Positions 8,130 to 37,500 of a stretch of DNA of 51,662 nt are shown here, one piece after another (within the stretch, counting starts at the first letter, position 1; each line of letters starts with the position of its first letter). Position numbers and translations under genes: made by a program. Source of the DNA: Escherichia phage aaroes; the sequence record NC_049826.1. The stretch is one strand, 5' to 3'. The notes under the pieces are model-generated. The model saw only the letters and a program-made list of their open reading frames with translations. It made no database searches and had not been told where the DNA came from.

Positions 8130-8414
8130 AACAACAGATCCAGTTAAAGAGATAAGCTGCCTTGTGATCTTGTGTCTGCGATACTGACGCGCAACAACCG
8201 GAAGATTTTCACCGCGCTGATGACCGAAGCAGATCGGCAACTCACCTTCAAGCGATCGGAATCCACCAAATTCAAGATCCCGCACTGGCTTTGAGCGCCA
8301 GGATTCAATAAATCCGCGCTCGTCACGAGTGATATAGCGGTATATGTTAGGGAGTGGCAATTGTATCCCATCAAAATACACTGTATCGGTATAGCTGTAA
8401 AACTTAGAACTCAT
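8124..8414 (-). CDS. hypothetical protein (96 aa)
   Basis: Start at internal ATG (MSSKFYS...) overlapping the stop of the 50-aa ORF upstream (ATGAGTTCTAA); stop TAG inside the repeat core. Confidence 0.45.
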   Translation of the reverse strand: MSSKFYSYTDTVYFDGIQLPLPNIYRYITRDERGFIESWRSKPVRDLEFGGFRSLEGELPICFGHQRGENLPVVARQYRRHKITRQLISLTGSVVE

Positions 8415-10179: not shown

Positions 10180-10641
10180 ATGACTATGACAAGTAAAGAA
10201 TTTTGCGATATGTTGCGAGTTAATGCAGCCTCACTAGCTAACGGTGATGTTAGCGAACTGCAAATCAAGGAGCTTGACTTGCAATGCAATATTGCGCCGG
10301 AAGACTTGAGGAAAATTAACGCCTCATACATCCGAACGATTATGAATCGAACGCCGGAGGTGAAAGCCGTTGGCGTGGTGAAAGTTGAACGCGTTCGAGG
10401 TGATGCGGATATTCCTGATTGCTATCGCGTAACCATTAACAAGAATCCAAAGCGCCGATTGCTGACAGATGAAGAATTGCCAAAACTTGAAAGTAAGTGG
10501 CGAGCAAAGTTTATTGCTCAACTGCTTAAAACACAGCCGCGAATCAGCGATCTGGAAGGTGAGCGCCTGGAAGGTGCAGCAATCGCACTTGAGCGAATGA
10601 ATGAAATGCTTAACGAGATGGTAAAGATGGAGGATGAATAA
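10180..10641 (+). CDS. hypothetical early protein (153 aa)
   Basis: AGGAG RBS then ATG 10180. Confidence 0.5.
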   Translation: MTMTSKEFCDMLRVNAASLANGDVSELQIKELDLQCNIAPEDLRKINASYIRTIMNRTPEVKAVGVVKVERVRGDADIPDCYRVTINKNPKRRLLTDEELPKLESKWRAKFIAQLLKTQPRISDLEGERLEGAAIALERMNEMLNEMVKMEDE

Positions 10642-18453: not shown

Positions 18454-18503
18454 ATTGCCTGCAATTTGTCTATAATGAGGCTTTGTTATAAGGAGGGCGC
18501 ATT

Positions 18504-19025
18504 ATGGCTAAAAACGTTGAGCCAGCAGTAAAGGCTTGCAATTTTAAAAAACTATATAATAAGCAATATGGCGATATTGCAAAAATGACAAAGGCGCACA
18601 AGTACACGCCGGAACAGGTGTTTGATCTGGCTGTGCGTTACTTTACGTGGGCCGAGGAAAACCATATACAGGCTGCGGAAACTGCATCCTTTCAGGGTGA
18701 TGTATACGAAAGCAAGATTCACAAGCCGCGCGTGTTCACCTTAAATGGATTCCGCTTATTCGCTGGGCTTTCTGCTTCCGTTCTTGAAAAATGGCGACGC
18801 GAGCCAGGATTCAGCGATGTTATGGACTTTATCGACGGCGTTGTTTACGAGCAAAAATTCCAGCTTGCCGCAAACAATATTGTTAACGCCGGATTCATTG
18901 GTAAAGAGATCGGCATTGAAAAGCCAGCAACCGTAACCATTGAGAATAACACAAGCGCAAGCGTTGACGCTGTAACGGCGGAGGAAGTCAAAGAGGCGGT
19001 AATTGACATTCTGGAGAAGATATAA
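18504..19025 (+). CDS. terS: terminase small subunit
   Basis: 173-aa ORF immediately upstream of and overlapping TerL; strong RBS GGAGGG; call rests on position and size. Confidence 0.6.
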   Translation: MAKNVEPAVKACNFKKLYNKQYGDIAKMTKAHKYTPEQVFDLAVRYFTWAEENHIQAAETASFQGDVYESKIHKPRVFTLNGFRLFAGLSASVLEKWRREPGFSDVMDFIDGVVYEQKFQLAANNIVNAGFIGKEIGIEKPATVTIENNTSASVDAVTAEEVKEAVIDILEKI

Positions 19026-20593
19026 TGCTGATTTGGGAAGACTTAACAGCGGCGCAAAAACGCGCCGTTAAGGAAATGAGCGAATATTCATTCGAAAAGA
19101 TGATCCGCATTTGGTTTCAACTTCTCCAGGGGCAAAGGTTCTTAGGAAACTGGCATTTCAGTTACCTATGTAGCGAAGTTGAAAAAATCATCAAAGGAGA
19201 GTCACAGAATGTAATTTTCAACATAACGCCAGGCAGCGGTAAAACAGAGATATTCTCGATCCATATGTCGCCTTACGCGTCATTGAAAAGTAAGAAGGTG
19301 CGAAATCTTAATCTTTCGTTTAGTGATGGCCTTGTCCAGCAGAATAGCAACCGCATTAAGGAGATTATTGGTTCTCCAGAATGGCAGGAGCTATGGCCTG
19401 GAAAGCTGGTAAAGGCAAGCGCAAAGGATCTGATTGTAACCGATGGCGGCAAGGTTAAATTGCAAGTTAACTCGCGATCTATAGGTGGTCAGGTTACTGG
19501 TCTGCGTGGCGGTTACATGGACGATGGATTTACTGGTATGCTGGTTCTTGACGATCCAGACAAGCCGGATGACATGCTTTCTAAGGTAAAGCGCGAAGCC
19601 GGACACATGCGCCTAAAGAACACAGTGCGATCGCGTCGAATGAAGGACACAACGCCCATCGTAATGGTCCAGCAACGGCTACACGTCAATGATTCAACAT
19701 GGTTCATGACAAACGGAGGTATGGGCGGCATCCAGTTTAAGGTTGTTAGCATTCCGGCGCTCGTTACTAAGGAATATCGCGAAACGCTTCCTGATTGGTT
19801 AAAGCCTGAGTTTGATCGCGATGTTTTGTCAAGTAAGCCAGTGATGATTGATGGAGTTGCTCATTATTCATTCTGGCCTGCTAAGGAAAGCGCGGAGGAA
19901 TTGCTTGCGCTTCGAAATGCTGATCCGTACACGTTCGCTAGTCAGTATCAGCAACAGCCTGTTGCGCTTGGCGGTAACGTGTTTAAAACAGAGTGGTTTC
20001 AGTATTACGGAAGCAGTGAGAAATGCACACTACCAAAACCGGATCGCTTTGAATACACATTTATCACGGTTGATACCGCGCAGAAAACAGGGGAGCTTAA
20101 CGACTATTCCGTGATCTGTTATTGGGGGATGTATAAAGATCGTGTTTACTTCATTGATGGCGTTCGCGGAAAATGGGAAGCACCGGACCTTGAGACGAAT
20201 TTTGTTGCATTCGTTAATCAGTGCTGGAAGCGCAATAAAGAATGCGGAACATTGCGAAGGATTCATGTTGAAGATAAGTCGTCTGGCACTGGCTTGATTC
20301 AGAGTGCAGCGAAAAAAATCATGATAAAGATCAATCCAGTTCAGCGTGATAAAGACAAGGTTACTCGTGCAATGGACGCAGCACCAGTAATGCGCGCCGG
20401 ACGCGTGGCACTTCCAGAATCGCATCCTATGCTGGCTGAGATACTAGCTGAAGTTGCGGCGTTTACATTCGATGATAGCCATCCTCATGATGATATTGTT
20501 GATAACATCATTGATGCGGTTAACATTGAAATGAACATGGCAGATGATCCGGTTGGAAGAATGAAAAAATTGGCAGGCTTGCGGAACAAATAG
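19025..20593 (+). CDS. terL: terminase large subunit
   Basis: 522 aa; Walker A ITPGSGKTE, Walker B LVLDDPD, acidic nuclease-like C-terminal half. Confidence 0.85.
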   Translation: MLIWEDLTAAQKRAVKEMSEYSFEKMIRIWFQLLQGQRFLGNWHFSYLCSEVEKIIKGESQNVIFNITPGSGKTEIFSIHMSPYASLKSKKVRNLNLSFSDGLVQQNSNRIKEIIGSPEWQELWPGKLVKASAKDLIVTDGGKVKLQVNSRSIGGQVTGLRGGYMDDGFTGMLVLDDPDKPDDMLSKVKREAGHMRLKNTVRSRRMKDTTPIVMVQQRLHVNDSTWFMTNGGMGGIQFKVVSIPALVTKEYRETLPDWLKPEFDRDVLSSKPVMIDGVAHYSFWPAKESAEELLALRNADPYTFASQYQQQPVALGGNVFKTEWFQYYGSSEKCTLPKPDRFEYTFITVDTAQKTGELNDYSVICYWGMYKDRVYFIDGVRGKWEAPDLETNFVAFVNQCWKRNKECGTLRRIHVEDKSSGTGLIQSAAKKIMIKINPVQRDKDKVTRAMDAAPVMRAGRVALPESHPMLAEILAEVAAFTFDDSHPHDDIVDNIIDAVNIEMNMADDPVGRMKKLAGLRNK

Positions 20594-20619
20594 CACGAAT
20601 TGCTAAAAGAAAGTATAAT
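20589..20619 (+). promoter_or_regulatory. repeat-core copy at the TerL/portal junction followed by TATAAT
   Basis: AATAGCACGAATTGCTAAAAG with the TerL stop TAG inside it; TATAAT 20614-20619 sits just before a terminator hairpin. Confidence 0.4.
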
Positions 20620-20623
20620 CAAA

Positions 20624-20647
20624 GGCTGGTAAATCCAGCCTTTTTTA
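20624..20647 (+). terminator. intrinsic terminator
   Basis: GGCTGG-taaat-CCAGCC plus a 6-T run. Confidence 0.8.
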
Positions 20648-20661
20648 TTGGAGGAAAGATA

Positions 20662-21942
20662 ATGAGTAAATCACGAATCGTTAAGGCTGACGGCTATAAC
20701 GAGATCTTTAAAGGCGAGAATTGCAAATCGCGAGTAGAACAACCATTCTACATGCAATCAATGCCATACAAGACGCTTGCTGACTTTTACGAAAAAGATG
20801 GCCTGGCAAAAAGGATTATTGACGTAGTACCAGAGGAAATGGTTTCCCCTGGCTTTACTGTTGACGGCGTGGCAGACGAGGCTGCATTCCGTTCTTTGTG
20901 GGATGAAAAGCGATTGAATGCAAAAATTATTGATGCGCTTTGCTGGTCGCGTTTGTTTGGCGGATCTGCAATCATTGCTCTTGTTCAGGATGGGCGAGCA
21001 CTCAAATCACCTGTAAAGCCTGGCGCTGTGCTGGAAGATGTTCGCGTTTACGATCGTTATCAGATTCGCGTTGAAGCGCGCGAAACTAATCCCCGCAAGG
21101 TTCGCTATGGTGAGCCAGTGCTTTACACTGTAACGCCAGGCGGAGACTTGCCGGAATACCAGGTACATTACACGCGCGTTTGCATTATCGACGGTGAGCG
21201 GATACCTAACGCAAAGCGACGCAGCAATGATGGCTGGGGTGAGTCAGTTCTTAACAAGCGACTTGTTGAGGCTATTGTTGATTATAACTATTGTGAAACA
21301 TTGGCAACGCAATTATTGCGGAGGAAACAACAGGCGGTATGGAAGGCTAAAGGACTTGCTGACTTGTGCGATGATGAGGAAGGCGTTAGCGCAGCACGTC
21401 TGAGACTTGCGCAGGTTGACGATGAGGGTGGCGTAGGTAGGGCCATTGGTATTGATGCTGAGGATGAGGAATATGATGTTCTTAACTCTGACATTAGCGG
21501 CGTTGATTCTTTCTTGGAAAAGAAAATGGATCGCATAGTTTCCCTTTCAGGTATTCATGAAATCATCCTGAAAAATAAAAACGTTGGCGGCGTTAGCGCA
21601 AGCCAAAACACGGCGCTTGAAACATTCTATAAGCTGATTGAACGAAAACGCGTTGAGGATTACAAGCCTATCCTTGAATTTCTATTGCCGTTCATCATTA
21701 GCGAGCAGGAGTGGAGCATTGAGTTTTCACCTTTGAGCGTACCTAGCGATAAAGATCAGGCTGAAATTCTGAATAAGAATATCGACTCAATCAGCAAGGC
21801 TATTGATGGTCAGTTCCTTGATGTTGAAGAGGCGCGCGACACGTTGCGAGCAATCGCCCCAAGCGTTAAACTAAAGGACACTAATAAAATAAAGCTGCCG
21901 GAGCCATCGGAGCCGGAGCCAGGCACACAGGGGAATGAGTAA
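20662..21942 (+). CDS. portal protein
   Basis: 426-aa ORF directly after TerL with an acidic C-terminus; call rests on position and size. Confidence 0.65.
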   Translation: MSKSRIVKADGYNEIFKGENCKSRVEQPFYMQSMPYKTLADFYEKDGLAKRIIDVVPEEMVSPGFTVDGVADEAAFRSLWDEKRLNAKIIDALCWSRLFGGSAIIALVQDGRALKSPVKPGAVLEDVRVYDRYQIRVEARETNPRKVRYGEPVLYTVTPGGDLPEYQVHYTRVCIIDGERIPNAKRRSNDGWGESVLNKRLVEAIVDYNYCETLATQLLRRKQQAVWKAKGLADLCDDEEGVSAARLRLAQVDDEGGVGRAIGIDAEDEEYDVLNSDISGVDSFLEKKMDRIVSLSGIHEIILKNKNVGGVSASQNTALETFYKLIERKRVEDYKPILEFLLPFIISEQEWSIEFSPLSVPSDKDQAEILNKNIDSISKAIDGQFLDVEEARDTLRAIAPSVKLKDTNKIKLPEPSEPEPGTQGNE

Positions 21943-24827: not shown

Positions 24828-24846
24828 CACAAAATTATGTTGCACG

Positions 24847-24865
24847 TTTAACAAAAAATGCTATC
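24847..24865 (-). promoter_or_regulatory. inverted copy of the early repeat core upstream of the capsid gene
   Basis: Plus strand TTTAACAAAAAATGCTATC is the reverse complement of ATAGCATTTTTTGTTAAA; minus-strand CATAAT lies 6 nt beyond it. Confidence 0.4.
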
Positions 24866-28538: not shown

Positions 28539-28543
28539 TCACA

Positions 28544-28566
28544 AGGGGCGTTGCGCCCCTTTTTTT
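28544..28566 (+). terminator. intrinsic terminator after the tail tube gene
   Basis: AGGGGCG-ttg-CGCCCCT plus a 7-T run. Confidence 0.85.
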
Positions 28567-28605: not shown

Positions 28606-28625
28606 TTTTAACAAAAAGTGCTATC
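28606..28625 (-). promoter_or_regulatory. inverted copy of the early repeat core upstream of the tail chaperone gene
   Basis: Plus strand TTTTAACAAAAAGTGCTATC is the exact reverse complement of the early core; flanked upstream by TACAAT and CATAAT. Confidence 0.4.
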
Positions 28626-34542: not shown

Positions 34543-37500
34543 ATGGCTGAAAATATGATAACTGGAAGTAAGGGTGGATCATCAAAACCTTATGTTCCAA
34601 AAGAGATGGAAGATAACCTGATCTCAATCAATAAAATCAAAATCCTTCTTGCAGTTTCCGATGGCGAGTGCGATCCAGATTTTACACTTCGCGATCTGTA
34701 TCTTGATGATGTTCCGGTAATTGCAGACGACGGAACTGTTAACTACCAGGGTGTGAGCGCAGAGTTTCGCCCAGGTACACAGACTCAAGATTACATCCAG
34801 GGATTTACTGACACATCAAGAGAAGTGACGCTGGCGCGTGATATTACTACGTCAAATCCTTATGTGATTTCCGTAACCAACAAAACATTATCTGCTATCA
34901 GAATCAAAATGCTAATGCCAACAGGCATTAAGCAAGAGGATAACGGCGATCTTGTCGGCGTTAAGGTTACTTATGCTGTTGATATGGCTGTTGACGGAGA
35001 CTCTTACAAAGAAGTATTGCGAGACACTATCGAAGGTAAAACGCGTTCCGGTTACGACAGAAGCAGAAGGATTGACCTTCCGGCATTCAATGATCGCGTA
35101 TTACTTAGGGTTAGAAGGATTACGGCAGACAGCGCATCTTCTCGTGTTACTGATCTGATTAAGCTACAAAGTTACGCTGAGGTTATTGATGCAAAATTCC
35201 GTTATCCTCTGACTGGTCTTGTATACGTTGAATTTGACAGTGAATTGTTTCCTAACCAGATCCCAAATATTTCAATCAAGAAAAAGTGGAAACTGATTAA
35301 TGTACCAAGCAACTATGATCCTGTATCTCGAGAGTATAGAGGTTCATGGGATGGAACATTCAAAAAAGCCTGGTCAAATAATCCAGCATGGGTGCTTTAC
35401 GACATCATTACAAATCAGCGTTATGGATTAGATCAGAGAGAGCTTGGTGTACAGGTTGATAAGTGGAGTCTTTACGAAGCTGCGCAATACTGCGATCAGA
35501 AAGTTCCAGACGGAAAAGGAGGCACAGAGCCACGCTATCTATGTGATGTTGTTATCCAGAGTCAGATTGAGGCTTATCAGCTTATTCGTGACATTTGCTC
35601 TATCTTCCGTGGAATGAGCTTTTGGAATGGCGAGAGTTTGTCAATCGTTATTGATAAACCACGCGATCCATCTTACATCTTCACAAATGATAACGTTGTT
35701 GATGGTGATTTCCAGTATACGACGGCAAGCGAAAAGAGCATGTACACGCAGTGCAACGTGACGTTCGACGACGAACAAAACATGTATCAACAGGACGTAG
35801 AGGGCGTATTCGACACCGAGGCAGCATTGCGCTTTGGATACAATCCTACAAGCATAACAGCGATCGGATGTACACGCAGGAGTGAGGCTAATCGGCGAGG
35901 TCGATGGATACTAAAAACCAACTTGCGCAGCACTACGGTAAACTTTGCTACCGGACTGGAAGGCATGATCCCATCAATAGGTGATGTGATTGCTATTGCT
36001 GACAATTTTCACAGCAGCAACCTTAAATTAAACCTATCAGGGCGCGTGATGGAAGTTTCCGGCTTGCAGGTGTTCGTTCCGTTTAAGATTGACGCGCGAC
36101 CAGGTGATTTCATTATCATCAACAAGCCGGACGGAAAGCCAGTTAAGCGCACAATCTCAAAAGTAAGCGGTGACGGAAAAACCATTGAGCTAAACATTGG
36201 GTTTGGGTTTGAAGTTAAGCCGGATACAGTTTTTGCAATCGACCGCACTGACATTGCGTTGCAGCAATATGTTGTAACGAGTATCGGAAAAGGTGATGAT
36301 GATGATGAATTTACATACTCCATCACGGCTGTTGAATATGACCCTAACAAATACGACGAGATTGATTACGGAGTAAACATTGACGACAGGCCAACTTCAA
36401 TTGTCCAGCCTGACACGATGGCAGCACCGGAAAACGTGCAAATATCCTCATACTCGCGAATTGTCCAGGGTGCAAGCGTTGAAACAATGGTTGTGTCGTG
36501 GGATAAAGTACCTTACGCATCACTGTATGAAATGCAATGGCGAAAAGGTGATGGCAACTGGCTGAATACACCACAGACCGCAAACAAAGAAATTGAGGTT
36601 GAAGGTATTTATTCAGGAAACTACCAGGTAAGGGTTAGATCTGTTTCTGCTTCAGGTTCTACGTCTCCGTGGTCCAGAATTGTGACAGCTTCACTGACTG
36701 GTAAGGTAGGAGAGCCAGGCGCTCCAGTTAACTTAACCGCATCCGACAATGAAGTTTTTGGTATTCGTGTTAAGTGGGGGATGCCAGAAGGGAGCGGAGA
36801 CACGGCATACATTGAGCTTCATCAGTCGCCGGATGGAACGGCTGAAAACTCAAGCCTGCTAACGCTGATCCCGTATCCACAATATGAATACTGGCATGGA
36901 ACGCTTCCGGCTGGTCATGTTGTATGGTATCGGATCAGGAGCGTAGACAGGATCGGCAACGTTTCCGGTTGGACTGATTTTGTTAGAGGTATGGCTTCAG
37001 ATGATGTTGAGGCTGTTTTAGGAGATATTCTTGACAAGATTTTTGATACTGAAGCAGGTCAGGATCTGAAAGAGAACGCCATTGACAGTGCAAACAAGAT
37101 AAAGGACCAGGCGCAAGCAATCATCCAGAATGCTCTTGCTAATGATGCTGATATTAAGTGGACGCGAGTACAAAACGGAAAGAGAAAGGCTGAATATGGT
37201 CACGCTCTTGAGCTTATAGCCACAGAGACTGAGGCACGAGTTACGCAGATTGAAGAATTGAGGGCGTCAATCGACGAGGATATTGTTTCAAGTATAAAGA
37301 CAGTGCAGGAGGCTATCGCCACAGAATCTGAAACGCGAGCAACTCAAATAAACGCTTTGGATTCAAAATTCACAACTGAAATTGACGGCGTAAAACGCGA
37401 TACAGCAGCAAGCATTAATCAGGTGAATCAAACAATTGCCAACGAATCTGAAGCGCGAGCGCAGGCCGTTAACGCTCTTGATGCGAAGTTCACAAAGGAG

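Follow-up and report, generated by a model that had tools for sequence, protein, structure and literature searches.

We examined two intergenic junctions of Escherichia phage aaroes (NC_049826.1), one between the large terminase (TerL) and portal genes and the other between a helix-turn-helix (HTH) regulator gene and the primase gene. The whole record of 51,662 nucleotides (nt) is called the window here; it is the essentially complete genome of a T1-like siphovirus (Drexlerviridae, Tempevirinae, Hanrivervirus), and its 4-kb terminase-to-capsid block is 96-97% identical to those of Escherichia phages damhaus, G29-2, and haarsle. At both junctions, a copy of a repeated core motif precedes a hairpin and a T-run. 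The original prediction took these for intrinsic terminators and proposed that stop codon, core, and hairpin act as one 3'-end, processing, or stability unit, an interpretation meant to compete with a promoter reading of the entire repeat family. Four genes flank the two junctions:

19025..20593, + strand: TerL coding sequence, from the open reading frame (ORF) list; Pfam Terminase_6C, E = 1.3e-11.
20650..21942, + strand: portal gene with its ribosome-binding site (RBS), GGAGG at 20650-20654 and ATG at 20662; Pfam Phage_portal_3, E = 8.5e-72.
47636..48109, - strand: coding sequence of the Cro/YdaS-like HTH regulator; Pfam YdaS_toxin and P22_Cro, both just below the cutoff.
46648..47589, - strand: primase gene with its RBS, GAGGTG at 47589-47584 and ATG at 47580; Pfam Zn_Ribbon_Prim, E = 1.7e-12.

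The HTH protein (157 amino acids) matches PHROG 2856, a transcriptional regulator family, with an E value of 3e-78 and also matches Cro proteins in the PDB. The primase is of the zinc-ribbon type according to Pfam.

Direct reading of the HTH/primase junction gives the order HTH stop, core variant, hairpin, T-run, RBS, and primase, exactly as first described. The elements on the minus strand are these:

47634..47652, - strand: core copy AAAGCACTAATTGCTAAAA, with one consensus mismatch (AAAGCAC).
47600..47628, - strand: terminator stem-loop GCCTGGCA-t-GATG-TTAT-CATC-TGTCAGGC, with 8+4 base pairs (bp), one bulge, and a 4-nt loop.
47609..47617, - strand: extended -10 TGT-TATCAT, spaced exactly 19 nt from the core and occupying the loop and inner stem of the terminator hairpin.
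47602..47604, - strand: predicted primase transcript start C-A-G, placed from the geometry of the repeat family, 5-7 nt past the hexamer and in the 3' arm.
47590..47599, - strand: T-tract TTTTTTGTTT, read directly.

The HTH stop codon (TAA, 47638-47636) falls within the 3' part of the core. The RNA hairpin folds at -18.1 kcal/mol (z = -4.74 against dinucleotide shuffles), and the -10 embedded in its loop had gone unmentioned in the original prediction. RNAs begun 4-9 nt past TATCAT include no more than a portion of the 3' arm and form no hairpin (0 to -0.1 kcal/mol). The core is co-oriented with the primase gene and lies 72 nt from its ATG.

The same junction was compared across nine lineages: Hanrivervirus, two Warwickvirus types, BananaBelafonte, Changchunvirus, Webervirus, T1, TLS, and one IMG/VR contig. 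All nine have the core, a gap of 18-19 nt, a TAnnAT hexamer in the loop (TATCAT, TAATAT, TATGAT, or TAACAT), a run of five to seven T, and an RBS, and all nine have a purine 7 nt past the hexamer. Each folds a hairpin of -15.6 to -19.7 kcal/mol, with z between -4.4 and -6.3. The arms themselves fall into at least five distinct sequences: GCCTGGCA/TGTCAGGC, GGCCCAGC/GCTGGGC, GATCGCGTA/TACGCGAT, ACGCCTAC/GTGGGCGT, and ACGCGTAG/CTACGCGT. Orthologous cores stand at the regulator/primase junction of T1, TLS (where the copy is direct repeat DR10), Warwickvirus, Changchunvirus, and Webervirus, and a strict pattern scan of IMG/VR (core, 19 nt, TAnnnT, 6-16 nt, T6) returned nine loci, every one at the primase junction. 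Although the stem sequences have been replaced, every lineage still has a hairpin, a T-run, and a phased hexamer within the loop; we therefore argue that terminator and promoter are both under selection.

The promoter reading of this junction draws on the repeat family as a whole. The window contains 18 matches to the core motif at three or fewer mismatches, compared with 1.2 expected, a count that none of 100 shuffles attained. The core corresponds to a 21-nt direct repeat already in print, aaATAGCACnnnTTGnTAAAA, the function of which was left open (German et al. 2024, PMC11447400). That paper describes 18 intergenic copies in TLS, which run with transcription some 76 nt ahead of start codons and are divided into T, G, and A subtypes; it states that the same repeat occurs in T1, Rtp, and Rogue1 and proposes stoperators, enhancer sites, or UP elements (PMC11447400). 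A text search of the literature with the core sequence found nothing relevant. From the window, T1, and TLS together we pooled every core match (n = 69), and we called a copy phased when a TAnnnT hexamer matching TATAAT in at least four of six positions lay 18-20 nt past the core. Such a hexamer follows 55 of the 69 cores, at exactly 19 nt in 46 of them, and no other offset between 0 and 44 rises above 7. In these 55 phased copies, G stands two nt before the hexamer in 45 and T three nt before it in 27, which is the TGn signature of an extended -10, and A stands seven nt past the hexamer in 44. C-A occupies the start position in 33/55 (the genome frequency of CA is ~7%) and opens a conserved leader, CATCGAAACGA. 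From core to start codon the median distance is 76 nt (interquartile range 74-78, 10th percentile 71), with a Shine-Dalgarno sequence before the start codon. By this geometry, the repeats are read as putative extended -10 promoters in which a conserved 19-nt upstream element would replace the -35. Three other roles for parts of the core were set aside: TTGTTA as a -35 would require a 22-nt spacer, TTAAAA at 19 nt makes a weak -35, and the T-run/A-run, which resembles an UP element, lies 7-8 bp too far downstream to be one.

Most phased copies also carry a hairpin of their own. A structure of -5 kcal/mol or better is found in 41 of the 55, with a sequence that varies from copy to copy, and the 52 nt past the core have a mean folding z of -2.2 over all 69 matches. 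The hairpin encloses the -10 in 28 copies, where spacer and discriminator form the arms, and in another 10 it extends just to the first bases of the -10. Both arms lie upstream of the predicted start in either arrangement, and we therefore infer that the hairpin forms only in RNA arriving from the upstream gene. Compensatory changes are seen between orthologous copies, such as CCCGAT/ATCGGG in the window versus CCCGGC/GTCGGG in G29-2. Some of these structures have been annotated before: the T1 record labels the hairpins of three canonical copies as terminators (38973, 39998, and 41980), and terminator calls in G29-2 seem, by position rather than by alignment, to be orthologous to window copies 10901+, 40935+, and 6088-. 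Among the phased copies of the window, T1, and TLS, the one at the HTH/primase junction is alone in having 7 T in the 8 nt after its hairpin.

Upstream genes end in or against the core in 45 of the 51 copies of the window, T1, and TLS that have an upstream ORF. The stop is the TAG of the core in 22/51, its TAA in 7/51, and a codon no more than 4 nt upstream or at the first core base in 15/51. Examples in the window are 10901, 13664, 15022, and 50647 on the plus strand and 3245, 6088, and 8127 on the minus strand. A TAA often stands directly before the core as well, so that the repeat closes all three frames, as would be expected at the boundary of an exchangeable gene cassette.

These stops and hairpins bear on the original reading, in which the core-plus-hairpin family is a 3'-end, processing, or stability element rather than a promoter and the T-run copies are its clearest cases. 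In its favor are the stop codons in or against the core (45/51), the hairpins upstream of the predicted start (41/55), and the annotation of some apparent canonical-copy hairpins as terminators in T1 and G29-2. The core sequence TAGCA-N5-TG(C/T)TA can also form a small RNA hairpin in which the C/T variation exchanges G-C for G-U; in the common T-type core, with TGTTA, the dyad is broken in DNA and RNA pairing is still possible via G-U. RNAfold forms this hairpin in both junction copies, with about 5 bp, and it is too weak to serve as evidence for an RNA role. The 3'-end reading gives no reason for a -10 at 19 nt, for C-A at +6/+7, or for the fixed 76 nt to the start codon. Some copies, such as 48123+ in the divergent HTH/helicase region, have no upstream gene, only the HTH/primase copy has a true U-tract, and the terminator at the TerL/portal junction is present in T1 and TLS where there is no core; an Rfam scan of the whole window at gathering thresholds matched no family. 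We regard this explanation of the family as very unlikely. A 3'-end role is supported for both junction units, which have conserved terminator features, but not as an alternative to the promoter reading, since an extended -10 and a conserved start stand in phase with the cores. Promoter and stem-loop look superimposed, and the units look like composite promoter/stem-loop modules. An antisense terminator built from the spacer hairpin and, on the opposite strand, the core TTTTAAC was rejected as a family rule, as the hairpin begins 5-10 nt from the core in most copies.

The order at the TerL/portal junction (TerL stop in the core, core, TATAAT, GC hairpin, T6, RBS, and portal) was likewise found by direct reading to be as predicted:

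20590..20608, + strand: core copy ATAGCACGAATTGCTAAAA, G-type, an exact match at every specified consensus position.
20614..20619, + strand: orphan TATAAT, 5 nt past the core and 1 nt ahead of the stem; conserved, and outside the promoter geometry of the family.
20621..20643, + strand: terminator stem-loop AAAGGCTGG-TAAAT-CCAGCCTTT, with 9 pairs in the terminator scan and a 5-nt loop.
20641..20649, + strand: T-tract TTTTTTATT, T6 at 20641-20646 followed by ATT; read directly.

The TerL stop (TAG, 20591-20593) lies inside core copy ATAGCACGAATTGCTAAAA, GAAAG separates the core from TATAAT, and a single C separates TATAAT from the hairpin. The hexamer is thus closer to the structure than the gap of about 5 nt given originally, at 1 nt from the extended stem and 4 nt from its GC part. 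The hairpin folds at -14.3 kcal/mol (z = -3.55, dinucleotide shuffles), and the first three T of the T-tract pair with AAA at the stem base. As at the other junction, the core is co-oriented with the downstream gene at 72 nt from its ATG. However, this copy departs from the family promoter: 18-20 nt past the core stands GGTAAA, with nothing resembling a -10, and a promoter scan found no sigma-70-type promoter within 20590-20662 besides the orphan TATAAT.

Here as at the HTH/primase junction, hairpin and T-run are present at the orthologous site of every Drexlerviridae lineage sampled. The block TA(T/A)AAT, 1-2 nt, stem, T5-7, ATT, and RBS is kept in 13 lineages from T1 to Hanrivervirus, with TTTTTATT in the T-tract unchanged in 13/13 and the ATAAT of the orphan hexamer invariant (TLS has TAAAAT). 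For the most part the stem sequence (GGCTGG/CCAGCC) is conserved, and pair changes are few: the base A-T is G-C in BananaBelafonte, W011D, BHUENT9, and T1, and a T-A is T-G in T1 and TLS. We took these arm changes from direct reading of the sequences; a MAFFT alignment of the junction did not place T1 and TLS in structural register. The loop sequence varies freely (TAAAT, ATTTTT, ACATT, ACTATT, and AATT). The core is missing from this junction in T1, phi2457T, and TLS, though TATAAT, hairpin, and T-run remain, and it is degraded in G29-2 (5-6 substitutions) and Fulano1, with a rewritten 3' half (CACGAATCGATAAAC); at the other copies aligned between the window and G29-2, the 19-nt core is identical in 16/17. 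A terminator that persists with a degraded core or with none can therefore do without the core, and the proposal that stop, core, and hairpin constitute a single 3'-end unit does not hold here. The TerL/portal element is best read as a late-operon terminator accompanied by a core and a TATAAT that are out of register.

The original prediction doubted that this TATAAT is a productive promoter, and the doubt is borne out by its position 5-6 nt from the core instead of 19 and by the missing TG and C-A start. The contrary view would make it a real late promoter, with the hairpin as a 5'-terminal stabilizer of the portal/head mRNA and the U-run passed by late antitermination. From T1 to Hanrivervirus, the hexamer, including the critical A2 and T6, has stayed at 1-2 nt from the stem; a terminator after TerL would otherwise cut the expression of structural genes that are needed in larger amounts; and the late region is so rich in terminators that some bypass is required. 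Yet the TATAAT lacks a -35 as well as the TG extension, family phasing, and C-A start, and it may be hitchhiking in a 50-nt segment that is conserved as a whole. Transcripts begun at G20624 or G20625 would retain a hairpin of -11.3 or -7.6 kcal/mol ahead of the U6 run and would terminate themselves. A late promoter here seems distinctly improbable to us.

As a side observation, 12 of the 23 late terminators of the window and T1 have a -10-like hexamer whose end is 0-4 nt from the stem on its upstream side, compared with a background of ~10% genome-wide and ~27% in AT-matched sequence. The terminators concerned are 20621, 25898, 28543, 29265, and 32335 in the window and 10545, 14235, 16107, 16445, 18770, 24972, and 28568 in T1. 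This was rejected as a rule for late terminators, the excess being weak and probably mostly due to the AT-rich context of stop codons.

The intrinsic terminators claimed for the two junctions are supported by their stable GC stems, U-tracts, positions 3' of a stop codon, and conservation. Both hairpins lie on the strand of the upstream gene whose stop they follow. The T1 record (NC_005833) annotates terminators at 10545-10573 (TerL/portal) and 35930-35971 (regulator/primase), the G29-2 record annotates only the one at TerL/portal, and the Sip record also carries a terminator annotation. Table S1 of the TLS paper lists T30 at TerL/portal and T57 at regulator/primase, with DR10 directly upstream of T57 (PMC11447400). 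By their sequence features, both terminators are genuine, old, and already annotated, and their adjacency to the repeat is on record without interpretation. They were probably inherited from the common ancestor of the T1-like phages. The HTH/primase hairpin is flanked by an A-tract as well as the T-tract, and the Sip annotation is on the opposite strand; an antisense terminator role for this hairpin is possible.

Another account would have ordinary terminators stand beside decayed or inactive cores by coincidence, like the "half" promoter-early stem-loops (PeSLs) of T4-like phages, with the primase expressed by read-through. In favor of such a view, the TerL/portal core is not in promoter register, several lineages do without it, and in G29-2 and Fulano1 it has degraded. 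For T4-like phages, decayed elements that combine a promoter with a stem-loop are on record, and some co-occurrence is expected because cores and terminators are both restricted to intergenic gaps. At HTH/primase, however, the phasing, the TAnnAT hexamer, and the start purine have been kept in nine lineages despite rewritten stems, whereas a nonfunctional loop should drift, as the TerL/portal loop does. Furthermore, a hairpin of -18 kcal/mol followed by U6 would let through little transcription into the primase gene. Coincidence is an unlikely explanation in our judgment.

We consider it probable, with real room for doubt, that the HTH/primase element is a promoter nested in a terminator, the TerL/portal element is a late terminator, and the cores are promoter-upstream elements. 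Under this explanation, the Cro-like regulator gene would be transcribed from a host-type sigma-70 promoter, and its RNA would fold the hairpin at 47628-47600 and end in the U-run. The same DNA would serve as a normal repeat promoter, with the core, 19 nt, and TGT-TATCAT, having its -10 in the hairpin loop and its start, at the conserved purine, in the 3' arm. Primase transcripts begun there would be without the 5' arm; they therefore could not fold the hairpin and would pass the U-run into the RBS. The nested terminator would insulate the primase and downstream genes from immediate-early transcription and make them dependent on the core promoter. The TerL/portal terminator would be one of a series punctuating the late operon, for which the core and TATAAT are unnecessary. 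In most other copies, the variable hairpins would act only on RNA from the upstream gene, as attenuators or 3'-end stabilizers, and a polymerase sitting on the promoter might aid canonical hairpins in this attenuation or stabilization.

Several points weigh against this explanation. TATCAT is an imperfect -10, and the repeat family has no good -35; activity of the core promoters may require a factor bound to the core. The U6 run at +4 from the start could cause slippage or poor promoter escape, and the -10 of TLS is mostly base-paired within the hairpin. The TerL/portal core is kept in most Tempevirinae and in the Klebsiella/Enterobacter relatives sampled (K50 and BHUENT9), with a constant gap of 5-6 nt to TATAAT and with the unit at the family length of 72 nt, which hints at a function outside the favored explanation; nor does that explanation account for the conserved TATAAT itself. 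Every transcript start and end given here is a prediction. Our search of the literature on T1-like phages and the Drexlerviridae found no 5'- or 3'-end transcript mapping, and the sole transcriptome sequencing (RNA-seq) paper it found that mentions the Drexlerviridae sequenced a T5-like phage.

The promoter assumed for the regulator gene was found by the promoter scan:

48161..48188, - strand: host-type sigma-70 promoter TTGAGT-16-TATAAT, with 10/12 matches, upstream of the HTH gene.

Its orthologue in TLS, P57, is one of only three sigma-70-like promoters accepted for that phage in the TLS paper (PMC11447400). The -35 lies at 48188-48183 and the -10 at 48166-48161 on the minus strand. The helicase core promoter is on the plus strand, with its core at 48123-48141 and TATTAT at 48160-48165, so that the two -10 boxes overlap on opposite strands of the divergent region 48110-48200. 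This core is also within the HTH leader, next to the HTH RBS. The arrangement looks like a mutually exclusive switch, judged by the predicted promoter positions.

The cores might instead be operators of the Cro-like protein, acting as stoperator roadblocks or repressor sites, and regulator bound immediately upstream of the hairpin would then tune termination at both junctions. The core contains the dyad TAGCA-N5-TGCTA (for example, at 20591-20605 and 47651-47637), the HTH gene ends inside one core and has another in its 5' leader, and stoperators or enhancer-binding sites were proposed by the TLS authors (PMC11447400). However, the core is not conserved symmetrically (ATAGCAC ... TTGnTAAAA), the dyad is broken in T-type copies, and a pure roadblock leaves the phased -10 and start unexplained. 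The dyad center would fall near -42, which is a class II activator position rather than that of a roadblock. We give little credence to cores that act only as operators.

A variant in which the regulator activates is somewhat less improbable, and we still consider it unlikely. The cores would be sites for the Cro-like regulator near -42; the regulator, expressed from one of the few promoters of host type and insulated by the nested terminator, would activate about 20 core promoters and shut its own promoter through the leader core at 48123-48141, and the built-in hairpins, with arms in the spacer and discriminator, would form a new class of U-tract-less terminators working only on occupied promoters. 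The divergent HTH/helicase geometry is consistent with such a regulator switch. Binding of the regulator to the quasi-dyad TAGCA-N5-TG(C/T)TA near -42 and activation of the family by it are speculative. If this were true, each active promoter would stop the transcript arriving from the preceding gene, and the genome would consist of one-gene transcription units, shuffled as cassettes, each closed by the stop codons in its core.

The repeat family resembles extended -10 sigma-70 promoters with a class II site near -41.5 in having G at -14 in 45/55 copies and no usable -35, and the quasi-dyad near -42 is a further likeness. It differs in the asymmetric conservation of the core, which is partly like an UP element displaced downstream, and the activator is only a candidate.

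The terminators of T1 and TLS share with those of the window their junctions, orientation, and layout of hairpin, T5-7, and RBS, and the TerL/portal stem is homologous. They differ in that T1 and TLS have no core at TerL/portal and their regulator/primase arms are unrelated to those of the window. The T1 record and the TLS paper, as far as they were read, do not mention a -10 in the loop. In consensus, subtypes, intergenic site, orientation, and distance of ~76 nt, the TLS direct repeat is the same as the window family. In the text that was read, the paper mentions neither the phasing of an extended -10 nor a C-A start nor hairpins embedded in the units, and its table lists DR10 beside T57 and DR12 beside T62 with no comment (PMC11447400).

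Two further systems combine a promoter with a stem-loop. Arbiol 2010 is said to be a source, alongside Comeau 2014, for the PeSL cassettes. In T4-like phages, these cassettes join a stem-loop to an early promoter and mediate cassette shuffling (Comeau 2014, PMC4122927). Like PeSLs, the window family consists of repeated intergenic units of stem-loop, promoter, Shine-Dalgarno sequence, and start codon among small variable genes, with degraded copies. PeSLs are associated with cassette exchange, and units seem to have been swapped at several copies between the window and G29-2. The window family belongs to a different family of phages and has no sequence similarity to the T4-like elements; the PeSL stem-loop lies upstream of a -35/-10 promoter, whereas that of the window family lies between core and start, usually around the -10, and a core of 19-21 nt replaces the -35. 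In the promoter-coupled terminators of bacteria, the two elements overlap, and a polymerase bound at the promoter makes the terminator more efficient (Fletcher et al. 2026, bioRxiv 10.64898/2026.08.19.745784). There, too, one stretch of DNA between tandem genes ends the upstream unit and starts the downstream one. Their order is stem-loop (also the -35), T-tract, -10, and start; the RNA ends ~10 bp ahead of that start, and they are defined by an RNA end no more than ~35 bp upstream of the next start. The HTH/primase element falls outside this definition, as its -10 is in the loop and its predicted start is upstream of the T-tract; canonical copies at TLS 39624 and T1 41956 do fit the promoter-coupled geometry. 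What is new here is modest and lies in the geometry, a further variation on composite promoter/terminator elements in a repeat family that is already published.

Some other copies have features of their own. Comparison of the window with G29-2, a single genome pair, shows copies 9511- and 8127- without alignable flanks, and at copy 8633- the G29-2 spacer differs from that of the window and resembles window copy 3245-. Such swaps of flanks and spacers suggest, by analogy with what was proposed for PeSLs, that gene cassettes may be exchanged by recombination at the cores. Two reverse-oriented cores occur in the late structural region (28606-28624 and 24846-24864, both - strand), directly upstream of the major capsid and tail-chaperone genes; both are kept in T1 (18850- and 15086-) and one in TLS (15042-). 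The copy at 28624 has a phased TATCAT (TAGCAT in G29-2 and TAAGAT in T1) and points antisense into the terminator hairpin at 28543-28561; an antisense promoter is one possible role for it, and a protein site that works in either orientation is another. The segment 18431-18476, which precedes the small terminase (TerS) gene, has these building blocks in a different order: a terminator hairpin, a T-run, ~20 nt, and TATAAT (18471-18476), followed by a degenerate core-like stretch and an RBS. The corresponding T1 segment (8322-8380) has a clear core (8362) after TAAAAT and directly before the TerS RBS, with no -10 following. Lastly, the window opens inside a copy of the family (positions 1-55 match the profile from model position 13 on); its start cuts a repeat unit at an arbitrary point.

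T1 is one of the founding model phages, and yet its transcription program is essentially unmapped and the role of its conspicuous repeat is listed as unknown. Should the terminators be ordinary and the cores inert, nothing would be learned beyond the existing annotation of T1 and TLS. The promoter reading of the repeat gives testable coordinates for about 20 transcript starts per genome. If the nested geometry is real, this compact arrangement, with a -10 in the terminator loop and a start in the 3' arm, would join the known types of coupled promoter and terminator, and it could serve as a small insulating part in synthetic biology. For the T1-like phages themselves, the nested regulator/primase element would explain how gene expression is staged in a phage with about three host-type promoters.

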